A stretch of DNA of 64,000 nucleotides from a virus: IMG/VR virus record IMGVR_UViG_3300028283_000002, positions 70,438-134,437 of that record; one strand, given 5' to 3'. Within the stretch, counting starts at the first letter, position 1. The number at the start of each line of letters is the position of its first letter. Below, one piece after another: positions 4,805 to 51,821 of this stretch. Position numbers and translations under genes: made by a program. Under the pieces are notes generated by a model that was given only the letters and a program-made list of their open reading frames with translations, searched no databases and had not been told where the DNA came from.

Positions 4805-6572
4805 GAAATTTAAAACATATAACGAAGAGTTTTCTTTCGATAAAATCGAGAGCGAGGAGATTGTTATTGATATTAATGACTATGCCGAAGAATACGATAA
4901 TATCTTTAAAGATAAATTCAGATGCGTTAAAGCTGTTGGACCTATTCATCAAGAAGGTGAAATCTTTAATGTGAAAGATTTGTTTAAAGGTACATTTGGA
5001 ATGTGGATAACAAGTAAATCAAGATACGATGTGACTGAAAAATTTAAAATTATAAAAGGTTTCGATTGTGATATAGAATTCCTACAATTGAAAAAAGGTA
5101 ATTATATTATGATTTGGCCGGGTAAACAACAAAGAATAAATGACGCTGATCCAAATTACGAACCTTATCCAGGAGCACCAAAGAGAAAAGCGAGAATGAA
5201 AGGATCAAAAGAAAATTCTTTAAAAAGATTATCTAGAATATTTAGTGAACATAATAAAATTTTTATTCCAGCCAATAGAGTTGTAATGTACAATTTAGTG
5301 GAATATTTAAGAGACGCCCAAGAGAAACTTATAGGCGGTTATTTTTGGGAAACATCATCAGGCACTGTTGTAAGAGGAACTACCGATAAAAGATATACAG
5401 GTAAACAAGAAGAAATAGTTATCACAAGACCTAGATACATATACACAAACGGTGATCATTTAATATTAAAAAGCCAAAAAGTAGGAGGAACAGTTTGGGA
5501 CAGAGAAAAAGAAACTTATTTAGATATAAATAAACCCATCTACGGTAAAATGGTACATTGGATTGATCCAGAACTAGATCCATACGGTGAGGAGGAATGG
5601 GACGATGAAGTTAGAGAAATCACTGAAATCCGAAGTTTTGATAAATTTATACCAACAGGTAAATCTATTTCCAGTAATGAGATAGAAGATATGATAGAAA
5701 AAAGAGACGTAAGAGTTCTTAATGAAGATTATATAGGACGGGTAATGGTTTCAGATTTACCAAATTATTACATACATATAACTAATTGGATAATTAATAA
5801 TGATGGAAGACAGCGGTATAAAGGATTAAGATTTTATTACGATAATTACTACGATCCAAATGGAAAACATTATCAATTTACAACTGAAAGGGTTTACTAT
5901 TTCAAATCTAACATTACAATTACCACTTATAAAGAAATTGATCCTATGATAATTATAGATGAAAGAGATCCATATGGAGAAGAAGATTGGCGTGAATACG
6001 TGATAAGTGAACAATTTAATGAAGAATACACTCCTCCTAAACCAAAACTTGTTTTAGATAGAACACTTAATTTTAGTGATTTTCTTAGATTTGATCTTCT
6101 CGGACTTAAAAAGTTAAATCTTGTTAGAGATTTTATGTTAGAACAAATTGTTATTATTAAACAGGGGCATAATAACGCTAGAACAAAAGGTAGGGTATAT
6201 CACATTAAACCAATTAAAATAGATGGCGATCAATATTACGAGATTAAAATGACTACAAAACAAGGGGATAAATCAATTATTATTGGTGACGCTGATAAAT
6301 TTAAAGTTAAACCTCCTAAACAAATTAAATATAAAATAGATCCATGCGGTGAAGAAGATTGGGAATTATTGGGGGATGACGTTCCGGATGTTAAATCAAA
6401 AGTCATTAAGGGTAAAGGAAAAATCAAGAATAATGGGTATTTCAGCCACACCTTTCCGGTCAAAAAAGATTTTTATAAAATTTTAAAAGATATTCGACAT
6501 CAAGCGATTCAAAAAGAAGATTTTGAAAAGTTTTTAAAAGAAAAACGAAAAAAGGAAAACGAAGAAGATTAG
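4797..6572 (+). CDS. Modular protein with CTS-like N-terminus and three DP(Y/C)GEExW tags (start revised to 4797)
   Basis: MIKKFKTYNEE; tags at 5577, 5967 and 6339. Confidence 0.7.
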   Translation: MIKKFKTYNEEFSFDKIESEEIVIDINDYAEEYDNIFKDKFRCVKAVGPIHQEGEIFNVKDLFKGTFGMWITSKSRYDVTEKFKIIKGFDCDIEFLQLKKGNYIMIWPGKQQRINDADPNYEPYPGAPKRKARMKGSKENSLKRLSRIFSEHNKIFIPANRVVMYNLVEYLRDAQEKLIGGYFWETSSGTVVRGTTDKRYTGKQEEIVITRPRYIYTNGDHLILKSQKVGGTVWDREKETYLDINKPIYGKMVHWIDPELDPYGEEEWDDEVREITEIRSFDKFIPTGKSISSNEIEDMIEKRDVRVLNEDYIGRVMVSDLPNYYIHITNWIINNDGRQRYKGLRFYYDNYYDPNGKHYQFTTERVYYFKSNITITTYKEIDPMIIIDERDPYGEEDWREYVISEQFNEEYTPPKPKLVLDRTLNFSDFLRFDLLGLKKLNLVRDFMLEQIVIIKQGHNNARTKGRVYHIKPIKIDGDQYYEIKMTTKQGDKSIIIGDADKFKVKPPKQIKYKIDPCGEEDWELLGDDVPDVKSKVIKGKGKIKNNGYFSHTFPVKKDFYKILKDIRHQAIQKEDFEKFLKEKRKKENEED

Positions 6573-6622
6573 ATATTGGATAAAAACCAGAAAAGAATCG
6601 AATTATAATAAATATAATCCAA

Positions 6623-7444
6623 ATGAACTCAATTATTAAAATAAACGGTAGAGAACTAAAACCCTATATTTGGAATCTATACAATGGTCATAAAACCAAC
6701 GATATAGATTACTATTATAGTAGAATGATGGAAGCTGAACTTAAAACAGAAGAATTAGGTAAAATTGGCGAACTTCCTATATTTCTTGTTCAAAACGATC
6801 ACGTTATAGGTCAACCTAATATTCTTATTATGGGCGGAGTCCACGGCGAGGAATCTGCCGGTTCTTGGGGCATATTGAATACGATGATGAAATTGAAGTT
6901 GATGAAAATTCACGCTAATGTTTCTTTCATTCCTATTATGAACCCTTACGGATTTAGTAAAGGCATAAGATTTAACGAACAACTAAAATCTGTTAATAGT
7001 GGTTATTTTAGGACAAAATCTGGCAAACCAGAACTAACAGAAGAAGGTAAGATTTTAAATAAAAATTTTGTTAGATTAACAGAATTAGCAAGAAACGGAT
7101 TCCTGTCTTGCCACGAAGATACAGATGAAAATCATTTCTTTATCTACGAAATTATACACGACGCTAAACCAGATTTCTTTTGCACTGAACTTCAGAACAT
7201 TGGAATTAGATATTTCGGTAAACGTCCAGACGGTCCTTCTTATCAAGGAACAACAAAAGACGGCGTTGTGATGAACGAAAAAGACGGCACAATAGATGAT
7301 TATTTATTTACAATAGGTGGTATTCATAGAGCTATTACTACTGAAACACCAGGACACGAAGATATAAACAAAAGAGTATTTGTTTACGAACAATTAATAA
7401 CTAAATTTATAGAATTAAATAACGCTGGAAATTTTTGGAGATAA
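6623..7444 (+). CDS. M14-family zinc carboxypeptidase / AstE-AspA-like amidohydrolase
   Basis: GGVHGEE (HxxE), NPYG..R.N, LSCHED, TETP. Confidence 0.85.
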   Translation: MNSIIKINGRELKPYIWNLYNGHKTNDIDYYYSRMMEAELKTEELGKIGELPIFLVQNDHVIGQPNILIMGGVHGEESAGSWGILNTMMKLKLMKIHANVSFIPIMNPYGFSKGIRFNEQLKSVNSGYFRTKSGKPELTEEGKILNKNFVRLTELARNGFLSCHEDTDENHFFIYEIIHDAKPDFFCTELQNIGIRYFGKRPDGPSYQGTTKDGVVMNEKDGTIDDYLFTIGGIHRAITTETPGHEDINKRVFVYEQLITKFIELNNAGNFWR

Positions 7445-7786
7445 TTAATTAAGACTCCTTCTATATCTTCTTTCTTGATTCATTATACCAACATTCACTA
7501 AATCAACTATTTCCTCACCCCTTTTCTTTTTATTTTTAATCTCCTCTTTATATTCATCTGGATCGAGTCTATCTTTAACAAGGGTCATGTATTCGAAATC
7601 AGAAATTTTACTTATATCGTTTGTGTGGCAAAACTTACAGTTTGTGGCTTCGTCATTAAATGTTTTAAACAAAGCGTTACATTTATTGCATTTGTAATAA
7701 GCTGTGAGATCTTCTTTTGATGTTACTAATGGAGCAGCTCCAATTTGCTCTGCTTCAAAAGTTTTAAAATCCATTATGTTTCTCAT
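7445..7786 (-). CDS. Zinc-ribbon protein with CTS-like N-terminus
   Basis: CNKC...CKFC; MRNIMDFKTFE. Confidence 0.65.
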   Translation of the reverse strand: MRNIMDFKTFEAEQIGAAPLVTSKEDLTAYYKCNKCNALFKTFNDEATNCKFCHTNDISKISDFEYMTLVKDRLDPDEYKEEIKNKKKRGEEIVDLVNVGIMNQERRYRRSLN

Positions 7787-7829
7787 CGACGATATATTTT
7801 TTAACTATATATCGTTTTAGAAAAATGAA

Positions 7830-9037: not shown

Positions 9038-9979
9038 ATGGCTGGTATAAAATGGACCGAGGATGAAGATAATTTTTTAAAGGAAAATTATGAAAAATTG
9101 AATAAAGACGATTTATTAACTAAATTGATTAACAGAACTTGGGATGCTATCAAATTAAGAGCTGAAAAGTTCAAGATTAAAAGATATAATAATGAAAGAA
9201 GATTCATTGATCTTGACGTTTTATTAAAAGATACAAATGAGTCATATTACTGGATTGGTTTTATTATGGCTGATGGTCATATACACAATAATAAAAGATT
9301 GAAGATTTGTCTATCCATTAAAGACGAAGAACATTTGATAAAATTTAAAAATTTTATCAAATATGAAGGTGAATTAGCTTATGGGAACAACAACAATCGT
9401 GATAATACCACTATTAGTGTAATGGATACTAAATACATAAAAAAATTATGCCAAAAATTCGATATAAAACACAATAAAACGTATAATCAATGTAATATTC
9501 ATAAAATTAAAAAAAATAATTTATTATTAAGTCTAATAGTTGGATTCATAGACGGTGATGGTTCTATTAGAAATTCGAAAAATAGAAAAGATTTTTTTCT
9601 AACTATTAAATGTCATAAAAGTTGGTCAAATAATTTAGATTATATATTAAAATCGATAATTAGAATAACTGGTAAAAATTGTAATACATCAGTAAAATTA
9701 ACAAATTGTAAAAGATATTCATATATTCATATGGGGAATTCTGTTGTCCTTAAAAAATTGAAACATGAAATGTTGAAGTTAAATGTTCCATATATGAAAA
9801 GAAAATGGGATATTATAAATATGGATTTTGAAAGTAAATATGAAACTAAGAGAAAACATTTAGAACAATATATTGGTATTATTAATAACGATCCACACAT
9901 GAAAATAAAGAACATCGCAAAATTGATAGGTTTATCAGAAGGAGCCATTTATAAATATAAGAGAGAATTAAAAAAGTAG
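9038..9979 (+). CDS. LAGLIDADG homing endonuclease with Myb-like N-terminus and C-terminal HTH
   Basis: YWIGFIMADG and IVGFIDGDG; WTEDEDNFLKENY; IAKLIGLSEGAIYKY. Confidence 0.88.
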   Translation: MAGIKWTEDEDNFLKENYEKLNKDDLLTKLINRTWDAIKLRAEKFKIKRYNNERRFIDLDVLLKDTNESYYWIGFIMADGHIHNNKRLKICLSIKDEEHLIKFKNFIKYEGELAYGNNNNRDNTTISVMDTKYIKKLCQKFDIKHNKTYNQCNIHKIKKNNLLLSLIVGFIDGDGSIRNSKNRKDFFLTIKCHKSWSNNLDYILKSIIRITGKNCNTSVKLTNCKRYSYIHMGNSVVLKKLKHEMLKLNVPYMKRKWDIINMDFESKYETKRKHLEQYIGIINNDPHMKIKNIAKLIGLSEGAIYKYKRELKK

Positions 9980-10763: not shown

Positions 10764-11087
10764 TTAAACCCATGAATTTCTATCAGTCCAACGATTTTTA
10801 TATGGGTCTGATTTAGTTTCATATTTTTTACTTGGTAAATCATCGTCCCAATTTTCTTCACCGTAAGGATCAAGCTCTTTCATTCTGTCCTTTTTAATGT
10901 TCATTTTCTTGAGTTCTTTTCTAGCTCTATATGTAACAGAGTAGTCTGATAATTCTCTTAATTTTTCAAGTATATAAACTCTATCTTTATCTGGAAGATT
11001 ATGCCAATCATCTTTGGATAATCTCATGGATTTAATTTTCCTTAATTCGTATAAATATTCTCGGTCGGTCATACGTTGTCCTCCCAT
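10764..11087 (-). CDS. DPYGEExW-tagged hypothetical protein
   Basis: ELDPYGEENW at 10848-10871; probable start MTDREY at about 11072. Confidence 0.7.
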   Translation of the reverse strand: MGGQRMTDREYLYELRKIKSMRLSKDDWHNLPDKDRVYILEKLRELSDYSVTYRARKELKKMNIKKDRMKELDPYGEENWDDDLPSKKYETKSDPYKNRWTDRNSWV

Positions 11088-11584
11088 AATTCTTCCCCGT
11101 AAGGGTCTGCTTCACTAAAAATTTGTTTACCTTTATTAATGGGTTGTATTGATTCATTGAATGCTCCCCACTGTGGAAAATGATCATCCAACAGAGATAC
11201 TCTTAATAATTCCATATTATCATCTAAATGATGATAAACATTATTTTCACTCGTTAGAATTGATAGACCATCGTTTCTCATTATATCTATCAGTGGTCTA
11301 TTATCGTGTAATAAACACGTATCATCAAAATGAAAAAATGGATCACCGTCTATTCTTGAAAATCCTAAAAATTTTATCCAATTTTTTAAATTATCATCTG
11401 GGAAATCGTGTTTATTAATTATTGCGCCAGCATCAGTTTCTTTACCTATATAAATCCAACAAGGACCAGATACACCGCCTACTTTTTCACGTATTCCAAA
11501 ATATCTCATTTGTTCTCTTAAACACGCGTTTAAAGCAGCTTCTAATTGAACAGATCTTGTTCTTATCTTAAATACTAATGGCAT
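11069..11584 (-). CDS. DPYGEExW-tagged hypothetical protein
   Basis: C-terminal FSEADPYGEELWEDNV. Confidence 0.75.
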   Translation of the reverse strand: MPLVFKIRTRSVQLEAALNACLREQMRYFGIREKVGGVSGPCWIYIGKETDAGAIINKHDFPDDNLKNWIKFLGFSRIDGDPFFHFDDTCLLHDNRPLIDIMRNDGLSILTSENNVYHHLDDNMELLRVSLLDDHFPQWGAFNESIQPINKGKQIFSEADPYGEELWEDNV

Positions 11585-11587
11585 AAT

Positions 11588-12157
11588 TTATTCCTCCCAA
11601 TTTTCTTCACCGTAAGGATCAACAGCACAAAACTTTTGTCCCTTTGGTTCTTTTTTTCTTGATATTTCTTTTTCTAAAAATATTAAATCTTCATTAACTC
11701 TATTTCTCAAACCAATTAAAGCCACTCTATAATCCCTATGCGTCTTGTATCTACCTTTAGTGATGAAAAAATAAGAATTTAATTCTCCTCTTGATTTATC
11801 CACATCCGCTTCTAATGTCCATATTCTTGTCCTACAATCTGTGAATCTATTAGCTGTGTAATTATCCATATTTGGTGCCCATTGACCATTATAATGTCTA
11901 GCCACATGATCCAATCTATGAACCATAGGAGTGATATTATTATGTATGGTTCTATATGTGGATTTAATATCTTCTATTTCAGCCACTATACCAACACCAA
12001 GAATCCCTTTTGTGAGATATATAGGGAATACCTTTTCTTTTATTAAATTCCACAATTCAGTGCATGTTTTTACAATTATGGCAATAATAACACGCCAACC
12101 TTCTAATGTGAATAAAAGTTTGAATATATTACTCAACGTATGGAATACCGCTTTCAT
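11588..12157 (-). CDS. DPYGEExW-tagged hypothetical protein
   Basis: C-terminal PKGQKFCAVDPYGEENWEE. Confidence 0.75.
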   Translation of the reverse strand: MKAVFHTLSNIFKLLFTLEGWRVIIAIIVKTCTELWNLIKEKVFPIYLTKGILGVGIVAEIEDIKSTYRTIHNNITPMVHRLDHVARHYNGQWAPNMDNYTANRFTDCRTRIWTLEADVDKSRGELNSYFFITKGRYKTHRDYRVALIGLRNRVNEDLIFLEKEISRKKEPKGQKFCAVDPYGEENWEE

Positions 12158-12461: not shown

Positions 12462-12881
12462 CTACTCCTTCCAATTTTCTTCACCGTAAGGATCTAATTC
12501 ACTAAAAACTTGTCCTTGCGGATCGTTGTTTTCATACCTTATTTGAGCAGCAACCATCTCAATTCTTAAAGTGTTTATAACATCTTTATGCCTATCATAC
12601 ATAACATCTATAACAATCCCATGATTATCAATTAGTTCTGGGGGATTATTGGTTGCGTCACATATTATTTTATAGTTATAAAGGAAGTGATTAACTTGTA
12701 GTTCTTTAAATATGGGATCTAATCTTGTTATAATTTCAGTGCGTGTGTCTGGCGTATTGAAACGCATCCACATGTTTTCTAACGCTTCTTCAATTCTTTT
12801 TCTAATTAAGATGAAGGCTCTGCGTACATTTAAATCATCGAGTGTTATCGAATCTTCATTTATTATCCAAGGACTATTCAT
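12462..12881 (-). CDS. Stand-alone tail-sheath C-terminal-domain homologue with DPYGEExW tag
   Basis: LNVRR...RFNTPDTRTEI...KEL...LYNYKIICDATNN aligns by eye with RFNTPEIRAEI...KEL...LYDFKNVCDKTNN of the sheath at 55207. Confidence 0.8.
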   Translation of the reverse strand: MNSPWIINEDSITLDDLNVRRAFILIRKRIEEALENMWMRFNTPDTRTEIITRLDPIFKELQVNHFLYNYKIICDATNNPPELIDNHGIVIDVMYDRHKDVINTLRIEMVAAQIRYENNDPQGQVFSELDPYGEENWKE

Positions 12882-13269
12882 TGTCCCACCTTTCTTCCCC
12901 GTAGGGATCTAATTCACTAAATACCTGTTGATAACTACCTTTAGGATCATGTCCATGTAATCCTCTAAAATCGCCTTCACAATCAAACCAACCAACATCG
13001 GGACGATAACTCCATAATTCACTAGCCATGGATTTTCCTTGTAATTTAGTTTTAACTCCTTTGTGTTCAATCCACATGGCGTTGCCTTGTGAATCTGACT
13101 GTAAAACTTTATGGTTATCTGTTGCATTAATAGTATTACTTAGTTGAAAACTACTTGGATTTGGTACTCCGTAAAAACTATTAGTCACTATTTTTTTCCA
13201 TAGTTTATTTGTATTCATTGGTTTTCCTCCTCTCCATTTAGGATTGTTGCTCATAAATCTTCTAGACAT
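12874..13269 (-). CDS. DPYGEExW-tagged hypothetical protein containing a PolB-like KxxxNSxYG segment
   Basis: KKIVTNSFYG; C-terminal QVFSELDPYGEERW. Confidence 0.7.
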   Translation of the reverse strand: MSRRFMSNNPKWRGGKPMNTNKLWKKIVTNSFYGVPNPSSFQLSNTINATDNHKVLQSDSQGNAMWIEHKGVKTKLQGKSMASELWSYRPDVGWFDCEGDFRGLHGHDPKGSYQQVFSELDPYGEERWDNE

Positions 13270-13667
13270 TACCAGTTCTCCTCTCCGTAAGGGTCTAATT
13301 CATTAAATCTTTGTTCACCTTTTGGTTGTTGGGTTTGTTCATTTTGTTTCCACAACATTCCTGTACTACCAAAACCTGTATTATTTTTAAAAAAGTCTGG
13401 AAGTTTTTCCATTGCTTCTTTCATATATTTTTGACCTGCTCCTGTAACTCCTCTTGCTTGGTCGTAATAATTAGTTGACCAATGATCTATTAATCCTAAT
13501 TTATTCCATTTCTCAACGGCGTCTCTACGTATTTTCCTAAGAGTTTCTTTATCAATAGAATTTTCATATTCTTTTACAAGTTCTAGTTCTCTTTTAGCAA
13601 TACTATCAAAGCTCTCCATTTTCATGAGATCTTCGTTTAAACTCCTATATTCTTCTTTAGTCATCAT
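13269..13667 (-). CDS. DPYGEExW-tagged hypothetical protein (start revised to ATG 13667)
   Basis: Ends FNELDPYGEENW*; TAATG coupling to the upstream micro-ORF. Confidence 0.7.
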   Translation of the reverse strand: MMTKEEYRSLNEDLMKMESFDSIAKRELELVKEYENSIDKETLRKIRRDAVEKWNKLGLIDHWSTNYYDQARGVTGAGQKYMKEAMEKLPDFFKNNTGFGSTGMLWKQNEQTQQPKGEQRFNELDPYGEENW

Positions 13668-13820
13668 TAGTTTCTCCAATCTTCCTCACCGTAAGGATCT
13701 AAATCACTAACTACTCTATTAATTTCAGAGTTTCTCATACCTCTTCCTATTGACTGTTTTTCATGTAAACTACCGAAGCTTCCTATTTTCCAAATCTTTT
13801 ATTTTATCTTCTATTTTCAT
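13667..13820 (-). CDS. Small DPYGEExW-tagged ORF missed by the ORF track (about 50 aa with one frameshift, or 23 aa from ATG 13738)
   Basis: Frame reads ...GMRNSEINRVVSDLDPYGEEDWRN*; upstream ATG 13820 is out of frame by one base. Confidence 0.65.
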
Positions 13821-16547: not shown

Positions 16548-16883
16548 TTACCAATTAACTATCATTGTCCAAGAAGAACCTTTTCCTGCGTATTTTTGTT
16601 CTATGACTTCAAACCCTTCTGCCCTTAGATCATCTTGAAGATCAAATATATATTCACATAATTTCACATTAACGTCCTCCTGAACTTGTAAATTATACGA
16701 TCCCATTTCAGACATTTTTTTAATTTCTTCGTGAATTAATTTAAGTCCGACTTTTTTCCTTTCCTCTTTAAATTCGTTAAGTCTTATATCTGACTCGGCT
16801 CTAAGTCTCTTATCAGACTCTTCTGCCAATTTTTTCATTTCTTCTGCTAATCCCATATTATTTAGTGTTTTTATTCGTTCCAA
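16548..16883 (-). CDS. Hypothetical protein
   Basis: Operonic ORF ending L..EGFEV...W. Confidence 0.6.
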   Translation of the reverse strand: MERIKTLNNMGLAEEMKKLAEESDKRLRAESDIRLNEFKEERKKVGLKLIHEEIKKMSEMGSYNLQVQEDVNVKLCEYIFDLQDDLRAEGFEVIEQKYAGKGSSWTMIVNW

Positions 16884-17113
16884 TTTTCTTCTCCGTATGG
16901 ATCTATATCATTAAAAATTCTATTTGTTTTACGTTCTTCCATTATAGGTACATTTTCGTAATATTTCGCAAGATGTTGATAATCATACGTGTACCGGTTA
17001 AACTTCAATTTCTCTCTTGATATCTCTTCGGCTAAGATAGCTTCTAGTTGTGCAACAACGTCAAAACCATGATAAGCTTTAAGATCTTCTATATTTTCAG
17101 CATTCCATTTCAC
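16871..17113 (-). CDS. Major-capsid-protein fragment homologue with DPYGEExW tag
   Basis: WNAENIEDLKAYHGFDVVAQLEAILAEEISRE resembles T4 gp23 ELAQDLRAVHGMDADAELSGILATEI (recalled, not searched); ends DIDPYGEENWNE. Confidence 0.7.
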   Translation of the reverse strand: MKWNAENIEDLKAYHGFDVVAQLEAILAEEISREKLKFNRYTYDYQHLAKYYENVPIMEERKTNRIFNDIDPYGEENWNE

Positions 17114-17409
17114 GAAGTCCAGTCCTCCTCACCGTAAGGATCATCATATTTATGTTTCTTCATGAGAATTTTATTTCTTCTTTTCTTCCATATTTTAACA
17201 AAAAATTTCCAAATGCTTTCTAAACCAAATTCCCAAAAAGCTGCGAAAATTAATACTAACGATGCTAAAATGTTTAATGGTGTGAAAAATATAGCAAATT
17301 CAAATCCCCCTTTATCGCTATCCTCCCACATCGCGAAATAAAAAAATATAAGCAATACAAACCAAGCGATTAAAAAACCTATAAGCCACCACATATCTAG
17401 TTCTCCCAA
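17110..17409 (-). CDS. Two-TM membrane protein with DPYGEExW tag
   Basis: Two hydrophobic helices, basic stretch, then DDPYGEEDWTS. Confidence 0.7.
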   Translation of the reverse strand: MGELDMWWLIGFLIAWFVLLIFFYFAMWEDSDKGGFEFAIFFTPLNILASLVLIFAAFWEFGLESIWKFFVKIWKKRRNKILMKKHKYDDPYGEEDWTS

Positions 17410-18851
17410 TTTTCTTCCCCATAAGGATCTAAAGACTTACGCCTGTGATACTCTTCGGGATTAGTTTCAAGTAATTTTAATTTATCTATCAATATACTAT
17501 TTTCTTTCATTGCTTTATCTGAAAGTTTCAGATAATGTATAACTTCTTTTTGTACTTCGTTCTTTTCGTTTATAACTCTTCTTAAAGCTTCTTTAGTCTT
17601 CTTTAAATCTTCAACAAGATATTTTTTATTTTCTTCTATTTCTCTGTTTCTTCTATCAAAATAATCTTTATGAAAATTTGCTTCTTTTATCCATTCATCA
17701 GGCTCACCAGGTAAAGGTGAAGACTCATCTTTCCACCATGTAGTATCTGGAATGTTCCACTTTTTAGTTTTTTGCGATGATTCTAACTTATCCCTGTAAT
17801 CAGCGTATTTTTTCTTATTAAGCGTCCACTCTTCTTCTGTTAAAGTTGGTGGGGCGTAAGCACGTGCGTTCTCCCAAGACCTTCCTTCTTCGTATAATTT
17901 ACCACTACCAAACCATCTACCTTCTAACTCACTATCTCTTTGAAAATCTTCGTACCTTTTCTTTTTTTCTTTCCATTCTTGATCACTCAACACTTTTATT
18001 TCACCATCATCACCTTTTTCGATGGGAAGAATAGGGTTAAGTGGAGGATTAAAACCTCTTTTTTTCATTACTTCGTTCCACTCATCTTCTGTATAGCGTT
18101 TATATTTTTCTTCTATTATATTATTATATTTTTCCCTACTGTCACGCAGATGTGGATTTTGATCCAACTTCCATAAAGGAATTTCTTGTTGTTCTGTATC
18201 TACATTTAATTTAATACCTTTTGGATATTTATGTTGTGATACCTGCCAGGAATAAGGTTTATAAGGTTCGTCGTAATCCTTAATTTCATTTCTTCTATCT
18301 GGATTATTTCTATTATATTCTGTTTGTTTTACAAATTCTTTATATCTCTCCCTATTTTCTGTTTCAGTTAAACCATGATCAGGTTTATAAATACCACTTC
18401 TGAAATCTTCTTTTGGTTTTTGTGTCGCCGTTATGAACGGTCTTCCCTGACTGACTATGTTATCAGCCAATTTTCTCACTTCGTCGTGGGTTAATTCTTT
18501 ACCGTCAACATAATACTTATTATCTTTTCTTGTAACTGCTGGATTTTGTAAAGAAAAATGAGATTTACTCGAATATGTTTTCTCACCTTCCGAATTCCAC
18601 ACTTCTGTTATAGGAACAAAAGGTTCTAATCTAGAAACTTCCTTTTCATATTCTTTTGCTACATCTTTTATGGACACAAAAGGTTTTTTTTCTTGGTTTT
18701 CCTTTTCCTTCAATTCCTCGTAATGGAATACATTATTTCGTGCATCAGGTTCGGAAGAAGAAACATCTTTATTTAAATGTAAAGTTTCTTGCCACCATCT
18801 TACACCAGACTCATTTGGATCGTATTCACCATCTTTATTTCTTGCCATCAC
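17397..18851 (-). CDS. Charged Trp-rich protein with coiled coil and DPYGEExW tag
   Basis: 484 aa; repeated (T/S)xxEWxxxKK units; RWFGSGKL; ends SLDPYGEENWEN. Confidence 0.75.
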   Translation of the reverse strand: MMARNKDGEYDPNESGVRWWQETLHLNKDVSSSEPDARNNVFHYEELKEKENQEKKPFVSIKDVAKEYEKEVSRLEPFVPITEVWNSEGEKTYSSKSHFSLQNPAVTRKDNKYYVDGKELTHDEVRKLADNIVSQGRPFITATQKPKEDFRSGIYKPDHGLTETENRERYKEFVKQTEYNRNNPDRRNEIKDYDEPYKPYSWQVSQHKYPKGIKLNVDTEQQEIPLWKLDQNPHLRDSREKYNNIIEEKYKRYTEDEWNEVMKKRGFNPPLNPILPIEKGDDGEIKVLSDQEWKEKKKRYEDFQRDSELEGRWFGSGKLYEEGRSWENARAYAPPTLTEEEWTLNKKKYADYRDKLESSQKTKKWNIPDTTWWKDESSPLPGEPDEWIKEANFHKDYFDRRNREIEENKKYLVEDLKKTKEALRRVINEKNEVQKEVIHYLKLSDKAMKENSILIDKLKLLETNPEEYHRRKSLDPYGEENWEN

Positions 18852-27925: not shown

Positions 27926-29163
27926 ATGAATAACGTAATAACAACATATGACGACTTCTTAAATGAAGGATTGTTAGATGATACTAAAGCTAAGATTTTG
28001 AAATGGTGGAACAACTTTCAGAATAGAGATAATGTAATAAGAAAGATTCATATGTATCTTAACGCTGGTTCGTGGGGAGTCTTTTCATTTTCATAGCCAC
28101 TCTTATAGCAATGTGGACACCTACTGATATTGGTAGAACTATACAGTCTTTAATTACAAATAACAAGTTAATGTATTGGGCTATTTTTGTCATGTTGAGT
28201 AATGTAAATACTGGCGATAAACAATTAATGAAAAAAAGAAAAGAATTAGTAGAAAAGAAAATGAAAGAACTCAGAGATATGTTCGCTGAGAAAAATTATA
28301 CTAGTCATTATTACGTTGTTTTGGGTGATAAAAAAGATATTAAATCAGTACTGGATAAACTTAAAGCAGATGATCTTATTACTGATGCAAATATTATTGA
28401 CGTTGCTGATGTAACATTGGTTGATTTTTCAAAAACTTATAACATTAAAGATCCAGATAAATCTGTAGATCCTTATGGCGAAGAAGATTGGGCTGATAAA
28501 GATGTTGATGAGAGAGAGGCTTTACAAATATCAAACGCTGCAAAGAATTTAGAAGATAAATATAAAGTCAATTTCAGAAAAGTAGAAGACGTGGTAGATT
28601 ATATGGATAATAAATGGGAAGATTTTTCTGTAGCCAAGAAATTAACAAAATTTGGTAAAACTACATCTAAAATGTGGGACAGAGAATATCAAAGAGGTAT
28701 AGATAGAGTAAAACAAAGAAGAGAAGAAAGAAATAGACCACCAGAACCAGTCTTCTTCGATGATGAAGATGATATTCCAGATGATCCTATGGGTGATTAT
28801 TATTTTAATGAAATGCCAAACGATTTAGAATATAATAAAGTGCCTTTGACTGACGCCGAAGCAAAAAATTATAATGTCGGTGACGTAATACCAATTGGAG
28901 GTGAAGACTATACTATAACTAGAATAGATCCAGAAGAAGATGAAGCCTTCGCATATCCAAACAGATTATTACCAAATAATTGGTTAGAAGAAGAAAGAGC
29001 TAAAGGCAACGTAAAAGATTTACCAGATGGTAATCGTGACGGTCATAATTATCCAAGAGTAGCTGTTAAAATTGAACCACCAAAGAAAAGATTTATGGAT
29101 AGATTCAAGGACTTTGTAGTTCCTGGATTCGATGTAAAACCACCAGAAGTAATGGAAAGATAA
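27926..29163 (+). CDS. Membrane-associated internal protein with CTS-like N-terminus and DPYGEExW tag; frameshifted at about 28070-28090
   Basis: Upstream frame MNNVITTYDDFLNE... stops at 28096; the 28072 ORF carries hydrophobic segments and VDPYGEEDW. Confidence 0.7.
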
Positions 29164-29533: not shown

Positions 29534-30194
29534 AATATCAATTAGAGACATAGAAGCAGCCATCAAAGAATCAATGAAAGGCAGTGAAATACAATTTTCA
29601 GATTCAGTCTACGAAGAAAAATCTGGCAAACTTCGCCTCATAATCTTCTTCAATAAACTTTTTACTAGCACCAACGTGGTCCTCTATACTAAACTTCTTT
29701 TCGAAGTTGATAAAAATAAAGAATATCTTGTAGAAAATAGCAGTGGGCAAAATTTCTTTAAATATTTATATGATATTAATTGCCAATATAATATGAAAAT
29801 TATTGATGATATAAATGATTTTAAGACACAATGGAAGAAGATTATAGATAGTAATGAATTTGGTCCAAATTTAAAAGTGTTATCTGAGTTTATAAAGCAA
29901 CCTTCATTCATCGTTAATGAGTGGTTTAATAAGAATGATGTGAAGGATATATCTATGACTGGGTTTAAATATGAACCTAAGATGAAGATAATGCCTTGTA
30001 AGATATTATCGTTTCATTTTGTAATGAATGTGAATAATTCGGAAGAAGTGGAATTATTTATAAAGAAAGAGGGTAAGAATGATTTTATGTTAACTTTTAC
30101 TATTAATGGTAAGAAAGTAGATGTAGAGAAACCAGATTTAAGTGCTTTGGTGCAAACTATTGGAGAAACTCTAAAAGATAATATGGGACAATGA
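29523..30194 (+). CDS. Hypothetical protein
   Basis: 223-aa operonic ORF. Confidence 0.7.
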   Translation: MANKISIRDIEAAIKESMKGSEIQFSDSVYEEKSGKLRLIIFFNKLFTSTNVVLYTKLLFEVDKNKEYLVENSSGQNFFKYLYDINCQYNMKIIDDINDFKTQWKKIIDSNEFGPNLKVLSEFIKQPSFIVNEWFNKNDVKDISMTGFKYEPKMKIMPCKILSFHFVMNVNNSEEVELFIKKEGKNDFMLTFTINGKKVDVEKPDLSALVQTIGETLKDNMGQ

Positions 30195-30607
30195 TTAAGT
30201 TATTTGAAGCATATAAAAAGAATTTTTCATTTGGACATGAAATTGAAAATTTCAAAGATTTCTACGTTGTTGAAAACGTTGGTAAATTATTTGATATGTG
30301 CGATAAGAATGGCAACGAAGTTGTAAGATACATGACTCTTCTATGTGATAGTAATAAAGTGAAAATAGAAAAGCAAGACGGTAACATTATAAAATTTAGA
30401 GGGTACACTTCAACTGATAATATGTCTTCTGCTTTTTTAAAAACCTTCTGGGACGTGAATATTGAAAAATGGAGATATATAATTTATTTAGTTGATAGTA
30501 AAGGTGGGGAATATAGAACATCTGTAAACGATAAAATAACCTTTTATAGATCAAAGGGAATAATATCACCTTTAGATCCATATGGAGAGGAGGTTTGGGA
30601 TGATTAA
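30191..30607 (+). CDS. CTS-like and DPYGEExW-tagged protein
   Basis: MIKLFE...; ends PLDPYGEEVWDD. Confidence 0.75.
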   Translation: MIKLFEAYKKNFSFGHEIENFKDFYVVENVGKLFDMCDKNGNEVVRYMTLLCDSNKVKIEKQDGNIIKFRGYTSTDNMSSAFLKTFWDVNIEKWRYIIYLVDSKGGEYRTSVNDKITFYRSKGIISPLDPYGEEVWDD

Positions 30608-31022
30608 AAATTACCTAACATATATAAGAGAAAATGTTGAATTTGATGAACCCCCTATTAATTTAAAGGATTTCACTCCTAAATACGTTTTTGATTATTA
30701 TAAAGAAAAATATTGTGAAAAAGATAAGATGTTCAGGTACTGTGAATGGACTAAAATGTATGTAGATTTCATATTAAAAACATTAGAAATAGATAAATAT
30801 ATTATATTTAATGGTAATTCGCCAGGTGAAAGTAATGAACTACATAGTGGTTATATTAAAAAAGTTTTACAACCAGATAATCAAAAAGCTATAATTCATA
30901 TTATTTTAGATGACGGTATTGAGTACGGTATGTACCCAGGTGAAACGGTTAGAATATTTGATAAAGAACCAGAAAAGATATATAGAGAAGAAGATCCGTA
31001 CGGTGAAGAAGAATGGTATTAA
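30600..31022 (+). CDS. CTS-like and DPYGEExW-tagged protein (start revised to 30600)
   Basis: MIKNYLTYIRE; ends EEDPYGEEEWY. Confidence 0.75.
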   Translation: MIKNYLTYIRENVEFDEPPINLKDFTPKYVFDYYKEKYCEKDKMFRYCEWTKMYVDFILKTLEIDKYIIFNGNSPGESNELHSGYIKKVLQPDNQKAIIHIILDDGIEYGMYPGETVRIFDKEPEKIYREEDPYGEEEWY

Positions 31023-33455: not shown

Positions 33456-34037
33456 ATGGTGAAGAAATATAAGCAATTTCTGTTTGAATGGGGATACGGA
33501 GGTGAAGGTGGTGCAGCTTCTAAAGATCCTATTAAAGTTAGAAGTGCTATGCTTACAGAAATAGATCCATTAGAAGCCAAAGAAGAAGAAGAAGAGGAAG
33601 AAGATAATAGTGATATTCCTATCCTATCAGATACTAACGAATCAGTTGATAATGAAGAATTAGATCCTTACGGGGAAGAAGTTTGGGACGGTGATTTACC
33701 GAGTTATAGTTATAGAGAATGGAATGACGGTATATATAGTTTCTTAAAACAATTAAAAAATACATTCATAGATGAATGTCTTGCTGGTCTAGAAAGAGTA
33801 GAGCAAAAAGACGCGGAAGAATGGTTAGATGATATATTGAATGAAATAGAAGACGGTGATTACGATTTTAGTTCAGATGATATTAGAGCCATACGTGACG
33901 ATATAGACGATTTACTTGAATTATGTGTGGATAATGAAGATGATGATAGAGTCGAAGGTCCTGATCCAGATGAGTACTACGATAGAAAACGTGAAGAAGA
34001 ATACGAAAGATTCGAAAGGGAGTACGAGGATAAATAA
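33456..34037 (+). CDS. Acidic protein with CTS-like N-terminus and DPYGEExW tag
   Basis: MVKKYKQFLFE; ELDPYGEEVW; D/E-rich. Confidence 0.75.
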   Translation: MVKKYKQFLFEWGYGGEGGAASKDPIKVRSAMLTEIDPLEAKEEEEEEEDNSDIPILSDTNESVDNEELDPYGEEVWDGDLPSYSYREWNDGIYSFLKQLKNTFIDECLAGLERVEQKDAEEWLDDILNEIEDGDYDFSSDDIRAIRDDIDDLLELCVDNEDDDRVEGPDPDEYYDRKREEEYERFEREYEDK

Positions 34038-39540: not shown

Positions 39541-39577
39541 TTATAACTTTTTCTTTTTTAGATGTTTTTAACATCTT

Positions 39578-43012: not shown

Positions 43013-43743
43013 CTATTAATTTTTTCTTTTTTGATTAATTTAAATTTTTTACATTCGTATCTAGTGAAAAAAGACATGCTACATCCGATATGTTCGATAA
43101 CTTCTTTTCTACTATTGAATACTAATTCTTCACCATTTGGCGTTTCTATATAATATCTAGTCGCGTCTGGATTAGTTAAACCTGTGTTTTTACCTTTTCT
43201 TATTTCACTCCAATGTTTTTTAGTTTCGTCTGAATGATGTTTTCCAAACATAGGATGCTCTTCACCAACGCATTTTCCTTTTCTGCTTTCTGAAATTTTT
43301 TCTATTGTTTCTTTTGATTTATTTTTACCAGGATTTTCATCACCTAACCATTTTATTCTTAATTGTTCTTTTTGTTCTTCGGTCATTTTTTGAAGTTTCC
43401 TTTTCTCTCTTATTTTCTCTTTTGTTTCTTCTGGTAAATGTTTACCAAACATAGGGTTATTTTCACCCTTCATTGATCTGAAGGTTCTACCCCCTTCACA
43501 AATATTATATCCTATTTTCCAGTTCGTAGAATTGAGTTCTTTAATCCAGTGGATTTCTCTTTCATCCATGTGTTTTTCATCTGAACAAATTTCCAATGTT
43601 TCTTTTTTAAAGTTTTCCTTACCATATTTTTTGATGGCTAATTTTATTGACGTGCCAGATCCAAAGTACTTAGGATTATCTTTAATGTCTTGGCCAACAT
43701 ATATTTTATCGTTGATCAGATTTGTAATTTTATAAATTATCAT
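43009..43743 (-). CDS. GIY-YIG homing endonuclease with NUMOD3 repeats
   Basis: IIYKITNLIN.KIYVGQ, YFGSG, E..WI, GYNI; NPMFGKH repeats. Confidence 0.9.
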   Translation of the reverse strand: MIIYKITNLINDKIYVGQDIKDNPKYFGSGTSIKLAIKKYGKENFKKETLEICSDEKHMDEREIHWIKELNSTNWKIGYNICEGGRTFRSMKGENNPMFGKHLPEETKEKIREKRKLQKMTEEQKEQLRIKWLGDENPGKNKSKETIEKISESRKGKCVGEEHPMFGKHHSDETKKHWSEIRKGKNTGLTNPDATRYYIETPNGEELVFNSRKEVIEHIGCSMSFFTRYECKKFKLIKKEKINR

Positions 43744-43899
43744 TGTTTTTTATTGTTATATATTAAAAATTAACCGCCTGTTCTTAAATAGGGTGATATA
43801 TTTTCTATGATATATAATAATTTATATATCGTGCAATGGTGGGCAGGTTTAAATTTTCGTTGTTTAATTTTTTAATATATAGAATAAAAATCTGCCACC

Positions 43900-46221
43900 G
43901 TGAGTTTCAAAAAATTCCAAATTATTAGTCCAGATACCATAGGTAGTCCTGATCCAGGGCACATTTATCTTGGTAGAGATAATATAGGGCTTTGGGAAAA
44001 ATATCCAGACGGTGAATGGGTTTATATTGTAACTGGCGGTACAACAGGTGCTGGCACTAGTGGTACATCTGGTGAAGCAGGATCATCTGGTAAAGACGGA
44101 TCATTTATAGGATCATCTGGAATAAGTGGAAGCTCAGGCATTTCAAGTAGCTCAGGTATTAGTGGTAGTTCAGGTAAATCTGGAACAGACGGAACATCTG
44201 GCACTAGTGGATATACAGGATCATCAGGCACGACAGGCACATCAGGCAAAACTGGTACATCTGGATCAAGTGGAACTAGTGGTAAAACTGGTTCAAGTGG
44301 ATCATCTGGTAAGGATGGAAATTTTTGGGGATCTAGCGGCACATCAGCTACATCAGGTATAAACGGAGGATACGGGGGATCATCAAGAAAATGGAGATTT
44401 ACTACATCAGCAACCCCAGTAACACCTGGTTATTTTAACGCGACTGGAACAACTTTCAACTTAAATGATATAAACTGTATTAGAATAAATGGTCAAGATT
44501 TTGATAACCAGAGTGTTAATTCGTGGTTAAGTTCCTGGGTTAATGGTGTATTAAAAATAGAGGAGTGGGGTAATGCTCAAAATTTTGGAATATATTCGAT
44601 AATAAGTGGTATTACTACAAATATTTACAATATTATAGGCGATTTTTACGAAATAAGTGGAATAACAACATTTAGCGCAGATGGCACTTTAACCAATGGA
44701 ATAGATTATTTAATATCTTATGTACCTGGTTCTATGGTGTCTAGTAGTGGAAAAAATGGAACTAGTGGTTCTTCAGGTATTGGGGTGGATTATTTAGATA
44801 TAACTATTATAACGGCTTATACATATACAATATTACCAAGTGATAAATTTTTAATAGTCAATACATTTTCACTTATAGATGGTGAAATAATATTACCCCC
44901 TTGTAATGGCAGTGGGAGAGTTATAAAAATAAAAAGCGATAATCATAAACCTATAAATATAGTTCCAAATACATTTCTTTGGTATATTGTAGATACTGGT
45001 TATACTATATCTGATTATATAGATACTGAGTTTTTCGCTCCTTGGGCTGGAAATTCAATAGGAAATCCAAAATATTTATTGAGTCAGGGAGTTATAGATC
45101 TTGTAGATGTTGTATCGCAAGATCAAAGCTTGGGAAATGGTGGATTATGGAACATTTTAAATGAAGAAAATAGAAGTGTGACAATATTAACAGGTTATAC
45201 TGAACTACATGGTAACGATTTAATTCCAAGATATCTAGTGTGCTCTGGTGGAACTTATAATATATTATTACCTGAAGCTAATAGAACTGGTGTAATTTTC
45301 AATTTTAAAAACGCGAGTACAGGTGTGATCACAATTAACGCACAACCAAGTGAATATATAGATGGATTATCCACTTTAGTATTACCTTCTTATGTCTCTT
45401 TAGTTGACTCTGGTTATTACAATTGGAGCATATTCGAAGATATAGATGAAGGTGGAGCTGGATCTAGTGGAACTAGTGGACATAGTGGATCATCTGGATC
45501 TAGTGGATTTGGCAGTCCTGGTGACTCTGGTTCAAGTGGCACTAGTGGATATGGTGGAACATCTGGATCTAGTGGGTTTGGCAGTCCTGGTGACTCTGGA
45601 TCTTCAGGAACAACCGGCACTTCAGGTACGTCTGGAATATCTGGCACAAGTGGATCTTCTGGTACAACAGGTACATCAGGTAGTTCCGGGATAGGTAGTT
45701 CTGGAACAAGCGGTAGTTCAGGTTGGAGTGGTGGGAGTTCAGGTACTAGTGGTTGGAGTGGTGGGAGTTCAGGTACTAGTGGTTGGAGTGGTGGGAGTTC
45801 AGGTACTAGTGGTTGGAGTGGTGGGAGTTCAGGTACTAGTGGTTCATCAGGTTCATCAGGGACAAGTGGATCTTCAGGATCATCTGGTATATATATAATT
45901 GATATAGAAGAATTGAATTTTAATGTGGAAGTTTCAGGTGAAACAAATATTTTTTTGGACGATTATGCTTGGTACCCATATGAAGTCAGTGGATTAACGT
46001 TGAGAACACCAAATGGAACTTGTTATGTTGATATGATGATAAGTGGAACTAGTGTTTTAAGTATAAGCGGAATGACTAATATAACAGGAAGTACAAATTT
46101 AAATATTTATTATTCAACTGAAAATTACACAGTAAATATTGGAAATAAATTCTATATTAAAATTAATAATAATATTAATGCTGTATATCTAATTGGATCA
46201 ACTAAAATTAGAAGAATTTAA
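43900..46221 (+). CDS. Gly-Ser/Thr triplet-repeat (collagen-like) fibre protein
   Basis: Long (GSS/GTS)n blocks flanking I.LP...G..beta domains typical of phage fibres; late-type box upstream. Confidence 0.75.
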   Translation: MSFKKFQIISPDTIGSPDPGHIYLGRDNIGLWEKYPDGEWVYIVTGGTTGAGTSGTSGEAGSSGKDGSFIGSSGISGSSGISSSSGISGSSGKSGTDGTSGTSGYTGSSGTTGTSGKTGTSGSSGTSGKTGSSGSSGKDGNFWGSSGTSATSGINGGYGGSSRKWRFTTSATPVTPGYFNATGTTFNLNDINCIRINGQDFDNQSVNSWLSSWVNGVLKIEEWGNAQNFGIYSIISGITTNIYNIIGDFYEISGITTFSADGTLTNGIDYLISYVPGSMVSSSGKNGTSGSSGIGVDYLDITIITAYTYTILPSDKFLIVNTFSLIDGEIILPPCNGSGRVIKIKSDNHKPINIVPNTFLWYIVDTGYTISDYIDTEFFAPWAGNSIGNPKYLLSQGVIDLVDVVSQDQSLGNGGLWNILNEENRSVTILTGYTELHGNDLIPRYLVCSGGTYNILLPEANRTGVIFNFKNASTGVITINAQPSEYIDGLSTLVLPSYVSLVDSGYYNWSIFEDIDEGGAGSSGTSGHSGSSGSSGFGSPGDSGSSGTSGYGGTSGSSGFGSPGDSGSSGTTGTSGTSGISGTSGSSGTTGTSGSSGIGSSGTSGSSGWSGGSSGTSGWSGGSSGTSGWSGGSSGTSGWSGGSSGTSGSSGSSGTSGSSGSSGIYIIDIEELNFNVEVSGETNIFLDDYAWYPYEVSGLTLRTPNGTCYVDMMISGTSVLSISGMTNITGSTNLNIYYSTENYTVNIGNKFYIKINNNINAVYLIGSTKIRRI
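45721..45840 (+). repeat. Perfect 30-bp tandem repeat x4 encoding GWSGGSSGTS
   Basis: GGTTGGAGTGGTGGGAGTTCAGGTACTAGT repeated four times. Confidence 0.95.
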
Positions 46222-49096: not shown

Positions 49097-49147
49097 TGTT
49101 GCACATTTCTTTTTCGTTATATATAAAAAATGGCAACACACAAAAAC

Positions 49148-50526: not shown

Positions 50527-50559
50527 AATTATTTGATTATTTTATATATTATATAACAA

Positions 50560-51192
50560 TTATTGTGACAAAGGTTTTAATTCGTTCGGAGTTATCTTTT
50601 GGAACATCCAATGATCATCCGTTGTAACATGTCCTTTTCTAACATATTTAGCGATAGATTTTTCAAACTCTTCAAATGAAAAACTAGAAGCCAATCTAAT
50701 AACAAACCCCTCTTGTATTTCAGTATTTATTTTGAAATTCTCAATAAACTCTTTGTTATAAATACCTCTCCATAAAACTGGGACGTGTTCTAATCCAAGA
50801 AATTTACTAAAAGTAACTGTATCATCCCACGATAAACAAGTATCATCTTCGTCCCAAATAGAAAATACCATAAAATAAGAAGGAAGACTTTTATATGATA
50901 ATGAATGTTGAGCGTAAAGATTTTCACCACAAATTTTCCAATCATCTGGAATATTATATTTGATATTCCCCCAAAGTCCTTTAACCCAGTGTCTTGAAGG
51001 ATGATCAGCACTATCTAACGAACGGGCGTGAATACAATCATTCATAAGAGTCGTATTTTCACCATCTAACTTCTCGCTTATTACTATTTCCTTTCCATTA
51101 AAAAAATCAATGTTTTTATGTATTCTATCGTCACTTGTGGCTCCAGGGCTCCAGGGAACGTGCGCCGTGCGCGGGTATTTACGTTTCATCAC
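50560..51192 (-). CDS. ATP-dependent RNA ligase family protein
   Basis: KYPRT.H.PWS.G...DD, EKLDGEN (motif I), GEN, EGFVIR, AKYVR. Confidence 0.88.
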   Translation of the reverse strand: MMKRKYPRTAHVPWSPGATSDDRIHKNIDFFNGKEIVISEKLDGENTTLMNDCIHARSLDSADHPSRHWVKGLWGNIKYNIPDDWKICGENLYAQHSLSYKSLPSYFMVFSIWDEDDTCLSWDDTVTFSKFLGLEHVPVLWRGIYNKEFIENFKINTEIQEGFVIRLASSFSFEEFEKSIAKYVRKGHVTTDDHWMFQKITPNELKPLSQ

Positions 51193-51481
51193 TTTTAATT
51201 TTTTTAATTATAAAATTTATTAAATCATTTTTATATTCTTTTAATTCTTTCTCCCATATATATATTATTTTATATCCTTTACTTTCAGCTAATAATTTTT
51301 TATTTAAATCCTTTTCCCACAATTCTTTAGCTATAGCACTTTTAAACGGGTGTGGTAAAATATCAGTTTCTTTATAAATTAAAGGGTTAGCGTGCCAAAA
51401 ATCTCCATTTATTTCTATTAATAAGTTCGTATTGGTAATTCTAATATCATATGAATTTTTATTTATCCAATATTGTTTTGA
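51179..51481 (-). pseudogene. Start-less remnant of a DUF559/Vsr-like endonuclease
   Basis: Frame reads YDIRI...IEINGDFWHANP..Y...D.L..PFK......W.KDLNKK.LAES.GYK...WE, paralogous to the C-terminus of 54124-55047; TAG immediately upstream. Confidence 0.7.
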
Positions 51482-51821
51482 CTACTTGTAATGATTGTGG
51501 GACACAGTATATAAGACATCTACCATCACTTATATACTGTGTCCCACAATCATTACAAGTAGTCAGAGGTTTCAATGGTGTTGTTTTCTTACCTTTTATA
51601 AAATTACTCCACTGTTTATGATATTTCTTTTTATAATGTTCACAATTTCTTTCAGATTGTGATAAATAACATTCTGAATCACAAGCCATTCCAGCGTCAC
51701 TACCAGGATATAAATAATCTAAAAAACAAGAACCTTCTGGGCATTCACAGATTTCCCAATTCTCTTCACCGTAAGGATCAAGTTCTTTTTTAGAATCAAA
51801 CATTTTAAATTTTTTTATCAT
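51459..51821 (-). CDS. Cys-rich protein with CTS-like N-terminus immediately followed by the DPYGEExW tag
   Basis: MIKKFKMFDSKKELDPYGEENWE followed by many Cys. Confidence 0.65.
   Translation of the reverse strand: MIKKFKMFDSKKELDPYGEENWEICECPEGSCFLDYLYPGSDAGMACDSECYLSQSERNCEHYKKKYHKQWSNFIKGKKTTPLKPLTTCNDCGTQYISDGRCLIYCVPQSLQVVKTILDK

Follow-up and report, generated by a model that had tools for sequence, protein, structure and literature searches.

Why would a phage place the same short peptide, DPYGEExW, on many proteins that otherwise appear to have nothing in common? To address this question we examined a window of 64,000 nucleotides (positions 70,438 to 134,437 of IMG/VR record IMGVR_UViG_3300028283_000002), part of a 153-kb contig from a lake-water relative of the largest known phage (735 kb), in which about one protein in eleven carries the peptide. 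In the literature we searched, no paper mentions this peptide for phages. Six-frame translation of the window with the pattern DP[YC]GEE.W recovered all 18 copies listed in the original prediction, seven on the + strand and eleven on the - strand, each in frame with an open reading frame, and the observation is therefore confirmed. Eleven copies lie 0–4 residues before the stop, as had been claimed. Two points required correction. First, one of the 16 proposed carriers, with its tag at 13676–13699, is a remnant of 37 codons without a start codon (13667..13780, -) whose orthologue in the 735-kb relative LR756501 is 118 aa, leaving 15 intact carriers plus one remnant. Second, the extended consensus that had been assigned to the 10.7–13.7 kb cluster is general, reads [KR]-R-[VI]-[FY]-[ST]-x-[LE]-DPYGEE-x-W-[DE]-[DE], and makes the motif about 16 residues long.

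We next asked whether so many copies could arise by chance. The whole contig holds 35 exact matches to the DNA pattern, against 0 for the reversed pattern, and LR756501 holds 103 copies, where composition predicts 1.3e-4 and 200 proteome shuffles gave 0; only 10 one-mismatch variants were found there. A search of 596 Gb of prokaryote genomes returned just 72 single, chance-level hits, and four related megaphages gave 0, whereas 488 clusters at 50% identity carry the tag among 1.84 billion representatives. The tag is exact in 65 of 81 homologues in IMG/VR relatives, with a median flank identity of 35%. In addition, contigs from two lake-water metatranscriptomes cover 10.0–17.5 kb of the window at 99% identity or more, placing the tagged operon in RNA libraries, although DNA carry-over is not excluded.

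Such conservation might reflect shared ancestry or a nucleic-acid function, the carriers being one fast-diverging paralogue family or the tag a mobile or translational DNA/RNA signal. Consistent with this possibility, codon choice inside the tag is biased towards CCT, TAC and GGT relative to genome usage, one 18-mer accounts for 24 of the 103 copies in LR756501, some modules are true paralogues, and in one capsid-fragment gene the tag aligns with the capsid protein's own IYVDPYMRWDD element, which hints at an origin by descent. However, in the 18 copies of the window all four Pro and all four Gly codons occur and there are 16 distinct 18-mers; LR756501 has 46 synonymous haplotypes, the tag is always in frame, no DNA is conserved beyond the stop, and the flanks carry no information beyond +/-30 nt. 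N-terminal and internal copies rule out a stop-linked RNA signal. With the tag masked, 87 carriers fall into 86 BLAST clusters, and they include clearly different folds: enzymes (dCMP deaminase, CCA-adding enzyme, GNAT), membrane proteins and structural fragments. This explanation is thus largely refuted and we consider it very unlikely. Selection acts mainly on the peptide, but the synonymous sites are not fully free, and the codon bias is not explained by peptide selection alone.

Where on the carriers does the tag reside? The 603-aa protein at 4761..6572 (+) is built of ~125-aa modules, each ending in a tag (5577–5600, 5967–5990 and 6339–6362, the third reading DPCGEEDW). An AlphaFold2 model of 5538–6020 gives a module core with pLDDT above 90 and places both tags in low-confidence flanks, the tag blocks scoring 51–65. 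The module family recurs in multi-tag proteins of relatives, whose beads-on-a-string proteins have up to ten tags spaced about 100–130 aa apart. Further internal tags lie in a 363-aa carrier at 28072..29163 (+; tag at 28468–28491) and in a 193-aa carrier at 33456..34037 (+; tag at 33663–33686) that begins with a leader, MVKKYKQFLFE, resembling the capsid targeting sequence (CTS) of phage T4. A 120-aa carrier at 51459..51821 (-) is of the N-terminal kind, with the leader MIKKFKMFDSKKEL followed at once by the tag (51756–51779); LR756501 has 18 such N-terminal carriers. Placement in a predicted flexible segment, independence of position, and conservation while the flanks diverge are the properties expected of a short linear motif in a disordered region, and the tag shows all three.

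All but one of the remaining carriers bear the tag at or near the C-terminus, and several proved to be fragments of virion proteins, a feature absent from the original prediction, as was the fusion of up to ten tagged modules into one protein in relatives. The 171-aa carrier at 11069..11584 (-; tag at 11084–11107, 4 residues before the stop) has an N-terminal part that is a fragment of the major capsid protein, as residues 2–85 of its LR756501 orthologue are 38% identical to capsid protein residues 140–219. The 80-aa carrier at 16871..17113 (-; tag at 16880–16903) is likewise a major-capsid-protein fragment plus a C-terminal tag (phrog_138 major head protein, E 9e-5; Pfam Gp23, E 6.6e-5). The 139-aa carrier at 12462..12881 (-; tag at 12471–12494) is a paralogue of the C-terminal domain of the tail sheath plus a C-terminal tag (phrog_23 tail sheath, E 7e-15; 40% identical over 80 aa to sheath residues 1174–1253), and the LR756501 orthologue of the remnant at 13667..13780 resembles sheath residues 28–67. 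The genuine tail sheath, the parent family of these fragments, is encoded at 55207..59064 (+; 1285 aa) and is untagged. Other carriers on the - strand are a 107-aa protein at 10764..11087 (tag at 10848–10871, 27 residues before the stop), a 189-aa protein with a hydrophobic N-terminus at 11588..12157 (tag at 11597–11620, 2 residues before the stop), a 131-aa protein at 12874..13269 (tag at 12886–12909, 3 residues before the stop), a 136-aa protein at 13269..13679 (tag at 13272–13295, followed directly by the stop), a 99-aa protein with an N-terminal hydrophobic, membrane-type segment at 17110..17409 (tag at 17119–17142), and a 484-aa protein at 17397..18851 (tag at 17406–17429, 2 residues before the stop). 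On the + strand, a 138-aa carrier at 30191..30607 with a CTS-like leader (MIKLFEAYKK) and a C-terminal tag (30575–30598) lies just upstream of the baseplate wedge gene, and a 146-aa carrier at 30582..31022 has its tag at 30993–31016, 1 residue before the stop.

To determine whether the tag is associated with head assembly more broadly, we compared tagged and untagged genes. The T4-like leader occurs in 25/86 tagged against 47/930 untagged genes (OR 7.7, p 3.5e-11), and 7/13 genes for fragments of morphogenesis proteins (capsid, portal, prohead protease and sheath) are tagged against 79/1003 others (OR 13.6, p 2.8e-5); a tagged paralogue of the S77 prohead-protease domain is among the carriers. 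The tag nevertheless differs from a CTS. The CTS of T4 internal proteins (Mullaney and Black 1996, as cited in PMC10052503) is likewise a short peptide shared by unrelated proteins of one phage that directs them to one place, but it is N-terminal only, about 10 residues, loosely conserved, and removed by the prohead protease. This tag is acidic-aromatic and invariant, works at N-termini, in linkers and at C-termini, and often coexists with the leader; only 18 of 103 tags are N-terminal, and those follow a separate leader, which (KLFE, KIFE) fits the L/I-x-E rule for the end of a CTS whereas the tag does not.

The regular spacing of tags at module boundaries raises the possibility that the tag is instead a processing site, a polyprotein-style delimiter at which a phage protease, for example the T4-type S77 prohead protease that cuts after Glu, would release modules of about 100–130 aa and remove N-terminal leaders. 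The phage has an S77-type protease. In this phage the same kind of modules are separate genes that end in tag plus stop, with a recurring stop-ATT-ATG junction; independent enzymes are joined only through tag linkers; N-terminal tags follow a CTS-like leader; and the G-E-E that is invariant in all copies fits the A/S/G-X-E rule of giant-phage prohead proteases such as those of phiKZ and SPN3US (PMC10052503), although this shows sequence compatibility only. Against this view, 41 of 103 tags lie 0–4 residues from the stop, where cleavage would remove almost nothing and where the tag is just as invariant as elsewhere, while internal tags at module borders would fit. Moreover, known sites are only 3–4 residues long, nearly all release N-terminal propeptides and they are not found two residues before a stop codon, and membrane proteins and cytoplasmic enzymes are unlikely prohead substrates. 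We regard cleavage as doubtful.

Strict invariance is also typical of enzyme sites, and the tag could be the recognition tail of a modifying enzyme: either the lineage's RimK/LysX-family ATP-grasp ligase, which would add an amino acid to the acidic W-x-x-COOH end, or one of the lineage-specific glycosyltransferases, which would act on the invariant Tyr. Of the 41 C-terminal copies, 28 have exactly two residues after W, the same geometry as the EDWGE tail of LysW that LysX reads; the acidic tail of ribosomal protein S6 extended by RimK is a related case (PMC10433800). LR756501 encodes a RimK-family ligase (PF08443, E 1.7e-20; TIGR00768 below its cut-off) beside a class II aaRS-like gene, both conserved at 60–73% identity in tag-bearing relatives, and PF08443 finds no match in the four tag-less megaphages. 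However, homologues of the ligase occur in other AT-rich large-phage contigs with no tag within 16–21 kb, about 60% of tags are not C-terminal, and the last residue is not conserved (E, D, N, K, Y and V all occur), whereas LysW is one dedicated carrier protein with a terminal Glu and here hundreds of proteins carry the tag. The usual RimK substrate, S6, is a simpler target, and we think this explanation unlikely. Equally unlikely, in our view, is that the tag is a degron or unfoldase-docking tag that times the removal or unfolding of many phage proteins. The tag is short, exposed, terminal and works in any position; LR756501 has a Clp-type AAA+ ATPase (a 752-aa frame) next to a tagged gene; and phage-encoded ClpP is missing from LR756501 but present in 2–3 copies in each of the four tag-less relatives, so proteolysis is organised differently in this lineage. 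Yet multi-tag scaffolds and tags that join enzymes make little sense for degradation, and the tag is not known to resemble any bacterial degron.

The explanation we favor, tentatively, is that DPYGEExW with its weaker flanks is a portable short linear docking motif, on flexible tails and inter-domain linkers of about 9% of the proteins of one lineage of Mahaphage megaphages. In this view a common, lineage-specific reader would bind the acidic-aromatic peptide and bring many unrelated proteins to one place, most likely the assembling head and the set of packaged proteins, with proteins carrying 2–10 tags acting as multivalent scaffolds. Our analysis establishes that the tag exists, is invariant and under peptide-level selection, is placed in flexible regions, is linked to the T4-like leader and to paralogous fragments of capsid, portal, prohead protease-scaffold and sheath proteins, and is present in RNA libraries as part of the tagged operon; that it is read by binding, that there is a single reader, and that the destination is the prohead are inferences. 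Several findings sit uneasily with this model. No reader was found. N-terminal membrane-type segments are as common among tagged as among untagged proteins (7/86 against 66/930) and cytoplasmic enzymes also carry tags, neither of which fits a purely capsid-internal cargo set. Head proteins are 45–60% identical between tagged and untagged lineages, so that a conserved head protein acting as reader would need a complete change of specificity, and seven invariant residues is stricter than most binding motifs and looks more like an enzyme recognition site. The original prediction's interpretation is thus supported in part: a portable motif under peptide-level selection on mutually unrelated carriers, and a link to the CTS-like leader, are borne out, but no partner was identified, the proposed early operon with a host-type promoter remains conjecture (the sigma-70 scan is not meaningful for Bacteroidota phages), and the suggested analogy to the SSB tail and the idea of Tyr modification likewise remain conjectural.

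Other docking systems offer only partial parallels. Encapsulin cargo-loading peptides, and the scaffold or protease C-terminal tails that bind HK97-fold shells, are short C-terminal peptides on varied cargo read by one shell protein, but they share no sequence likeness with this tag, which is also internal, N-terminal and multi-copy. Large viral gene families such as the poxvirus ankyrin/PRANC proteins similarly combine many variable modules with one small constant element that plugs into a hub, but they use a folded F-box-like domain and a host ubiquitin ligase, whereas this is an 8–16 residue linear peptide in a phage, with no known hub. The sister megaphage LR756502 lacks this tag but has a different C-terminal tag, R[DNE]xK[LI]xx[LI]G[I], on about 100 small proteins. 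A more speculative reading, which we consider unlikely but cannot exclude, is that the tag is the constant half of a phage-encoded, multivalent recruitment code, in which about 90 variable modules per genome, including diverged fragments of capsid, portal, protease and sheath proteins that could bind assembly intermediates, host sensors or rival phages' proteins, are all plugged by one peptide into a single hub. That hub would either build a phage-specific compartment or head-core matrix or hand the bound targets to one effector, and each megaphage lineage would use its own code, for example R[DN]xK[LI]xxLGI in LR756502.

If one peptide routes about a tenth of a megaphage proteome, it gives a handle on roughly 90 proteins of unknown function at once, in the largest known phages, which cannot be cultured. 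It would be a viral sorting or docking code with no described counterpart, and a ready-made tag for engineering. The link to fragments of virion proteins points to an unexplored use of gene fragments, and the different tag in a sister lineage suggests that such codes are a general trait of megaphages that evolves by lineage.

We used six-frame translation to verify the original prediction that a shared peptide tag recurs on many unrelated proteins of this phage, and found DP[YC]GEE.W at all 18 of the predicted positions, in frame with ORFs on both strands, with eleven copies lying 0-4 residues before a stop. The observation therefore holds. The window is part of a 152,665-bp IMG/VR contig that contains 35 exact copies of the tag, as compared to 0 for the reversed pattern. 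The sheath protein of this contig is about 95% identical in amino acids to that encoded by LR756501, the 735-kb genome of the Mahaphage clade, which is predicted to infect Bacteroidetes (PMC7162821). In LR756501 we identified 103 exact copies and only 10 one-mismatch variants, whereas composition predicts 1.3e-4 copies and 200 shuffles of the proteome gave none, indicating that the abundance of the tag is far beyond chance. In contrast, four related megaphages (LR756504, LR756502, LR756500 and Lak-A1) have none, and a scan of 596 Gb of prokaryote genomes gave 72 single hits, about what chance predicts, with no contig stretch holding more than one. Variant tags include DPFGEE, DPYNEE and DPYGED. 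In the literature searched, DPYGEE appears only in unrelated eukaryotic and yeast papers, and we found no mention of the motif in phages.

The motif is longer than eight residues and conforms to [KR]-R-[VI]-[FY]-[ST]-x-[LE]-DPYGEE-x-W-[DE]-[DE], as in the tag peptide KRVFSELDPYGEENWEE. Of the 103 copies in LR756501, 41 end 0-4 residues before the stop, and 28 of these have exactly two residues after W, which is where the full motif ends. A further 18 copies follow an MIKKFKLFE-type leader at the N-terminus, and the rest are internal. All three stop codons are used in normal proportions, so there is no sign of recoding. Although codons within the tag are biased to CCT, TAC and GGT (G = 61, 61 and 28), there are 46 distinct 18-mers, and no DNA is conserved beyond the stop. 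Selection therefore acts mainly on the peptide, though there may also be a founder effect or a preference for accurately read codons. We consider it very unlikely that the conservation instead reflects shared ancestry or a nucleic-acid signal. An additional candidate tag, RT[KE]LID, turned up among raw ORFs of LR756501 but is absent from the gene set and was rejected.

The proteins that carry the tag are heterogeneous. With the tag masked, 87 carriers form 86 BLAST clusters, which include small membrane proteins, leader-bearing proteins, enzymes and structural fragments; searches against PHROGs found nothing for most carriers. In IMG/VR relatives at 67-92% nucleotide identity, the tag is exact in 65 of 81 homologues whose flanks have a median identity of only 35%. 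A lack of conservation in related phages, which had been set beforehand as grounds for rejecting the prediction, was thus not observed. Using a profile of 100 tails, we found 488 clusters at 50% identity among 1.84 billion representatives. One copy in the window sits in a 37-codon remnant without a start codon (13667-13780, minus strand), whose orthologue in LR756501 is an intact 118-aa gene.

Two features link the tag to head assembly and packaged proteins. First, a leader resembling the T4 CTS occurs in 25/86 tagged genes as compared to 47/930 untagged genes (OR 7.7, p 3.5e-11). Second, many carriers are diverged fragments of the major capsid protein, the putative portal, the S77 protease-scaffold fusion and the sheath, and 7/13 such fragment genes are tagged against 79/1003 others (OR 13.6, p 2.8e-5). 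Within the window these fragments are found at 11069-11584 and 16871-17113 (capsid) and at 12462-12881 (sheath). The protease-scaffold protein of LR756501 lies at 73913-76336. A similar array of small tagged genes, including protease-, capsid- and sheath-like fragments, is present in L144, a distant relative. We also asked whether the tag might have originated from the capsid protein. At LR756501 145582-146130 a capsid-protein C-terminal fragment is split into two tagged ORFs, and the first tag aligns with the capsid protein's own conserved IYVDPYMRWDDN element; moreover, the capsid protein is the only untagged gene in the genome that matches a DPY..W[DE]-like pattern. However, the alignment of the tag with IYVDPYMRWDD holds in one gene of LR756501, and the upstream ORF in L144 is not capsid-like, so this clue rests on one gene.

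The protein at window 4761-6572 carries three tags, and relatives encode proteins with up to ten tags spaced about 100-130 aa apart. The tags in these proteins of relatives lie in acidic linkers, some of them between independent enzymes such as a dCMP deaminase and a CCA-adding enzyme. An AlphaFold2 model of window 5538-6020, which spans a tag, a module and a second tag, gave a module core with pLDDT above 90 and placed both tags in blocks of 51-65. The predicted module is a small barrel with only weak Sm/SH3-like matches (best Z 5.9) and no Foldseek match at E 0.001 or better, and its fold provides no functional lead. An alternative reading, that the tag is a processing site, is possible but less well supported than docking.

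Contigs from two lake-water metatranscriptomes cover 10.0-17.5 kb of the window at 99% identity or more, consistent with transcription of this region, though DNA carry-over is possible. The RNA contigs do not cover 17.7-19 kb, from which we draw no conclusion. Public contigs, DNA and RNA alike, break or mis-join exactly at tag copies (window 10868/17404, 11617, 12469-12501 and 17430), presumably because several tags share identical 24-mers, which represents an assembly hazard for these genomes. With regard to the proposal that some carriers lie in an early operon with a host-type promoter, a sigma-70 scan found fewer sites than the shuffles and does not suit this host group. The window also contains at least six homing-endonuclease-like genes (GIY-YIG, HNH and LAGLIDADG-type PHROG matches) in 64 kb, interleaved with tail genes (956-1777, 9038-9979, 21128-21964, 34369-35928, 54124-55047 and 59095-60624), and two very large multi-domain glycosyltransferase proteins next to a collagen-repeat fibre protein (37184-46221).

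We reasoned that a reader of the tag might be amongst the genes specific to the tag-bearing lineage. Only 207 of 1,016 LR756501 genes have a homologue in LR756502, and some of the lineage-specific genes are well conserved in tag-bearing relatives. These include a RimK/LysX-family ATP-grasp ligase next to a class II aaRS-like gene, two glycosyltransferases (LR756501 540610 and 563944), a SET-domain protein, a NUDIX protein and a 252-aa protein just upstream of the portal gene. Lineage-specific conserved genes for a translation initiation factor IF-3, the SET-domain protein and the NUDIX hydrolase lie at LR756501 50199-50714, 692186-692581 and 699270-699791. The ligase (520 aa, with a ~200-aa N-terminal extension) and the 291-aa class II aaRS-like core form a conserved gene pair (LR756501 86975-89503, minus strand). 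This ligase is an attractive candidate because LysX reads the acidic EDWGE tail of LysW (PMC10433800), which has the same W-x-x-COOH geometry as C-terminal copies of the tag, and because PF08443 matches LR756501 but none of the four tag-less megaphages. Against this, homologues of the ligase occur in other phage contigs without nearby tags, and most tags are not terminal. In addition, the DPLPYGG stretch in the N-terminal extension of the ligase is not conserved in homologues, and its loop Trp (GEGVW) also occurs in distant homologues. A complex prediction with the ligase (alignment of 64), ATP and a 46-aa tagged tail (alignment of 100) gave no answer (score 0.00) and constitutes no evidence either way. 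We regard the possibility that the tag is the recognition tail of an enzyme as unlikely. We regard as equally unlikely the possibility that the tag is a degron. In its favour, ClpP (PF00574) is absent from LR756501 but present in 2-3 copies in each of the four tag-less relatives. A Clp-type AAA_2 ATPase passes the family cut-off in four of the five phages and matches weakly in the fifth, LR756500.

Taken together, our findings partly support the interpretation of the original prediction, namely that a short linear motif recruits many cargoes to one partner. That the tag is real, far more abundant than expected by chance, and under selection acting mainly on the peptide is established by our analysis, whereas its recognition by a partner, the existence of a single such partner, and the destination of the tagged proteins are inferred. 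The best-supported reading, which we put forward tentatively, is that the tag is a lineage-specific, portable docking motif read by one as yet unidentified partner and is probably connected with head assembly and packaged proteins. The sister megaphage LR756502 lacks this tag but has its own (whole genome, loci L235-L267): about 100 small proteins end in R[DNE]xK[LI]xx[LI]G[I], in 52 of which exactly 5 residues follow K[LI], and about 75 proteins have an MKHLKKYKIFES-type leader. Tag codes therefore differ by lineage.
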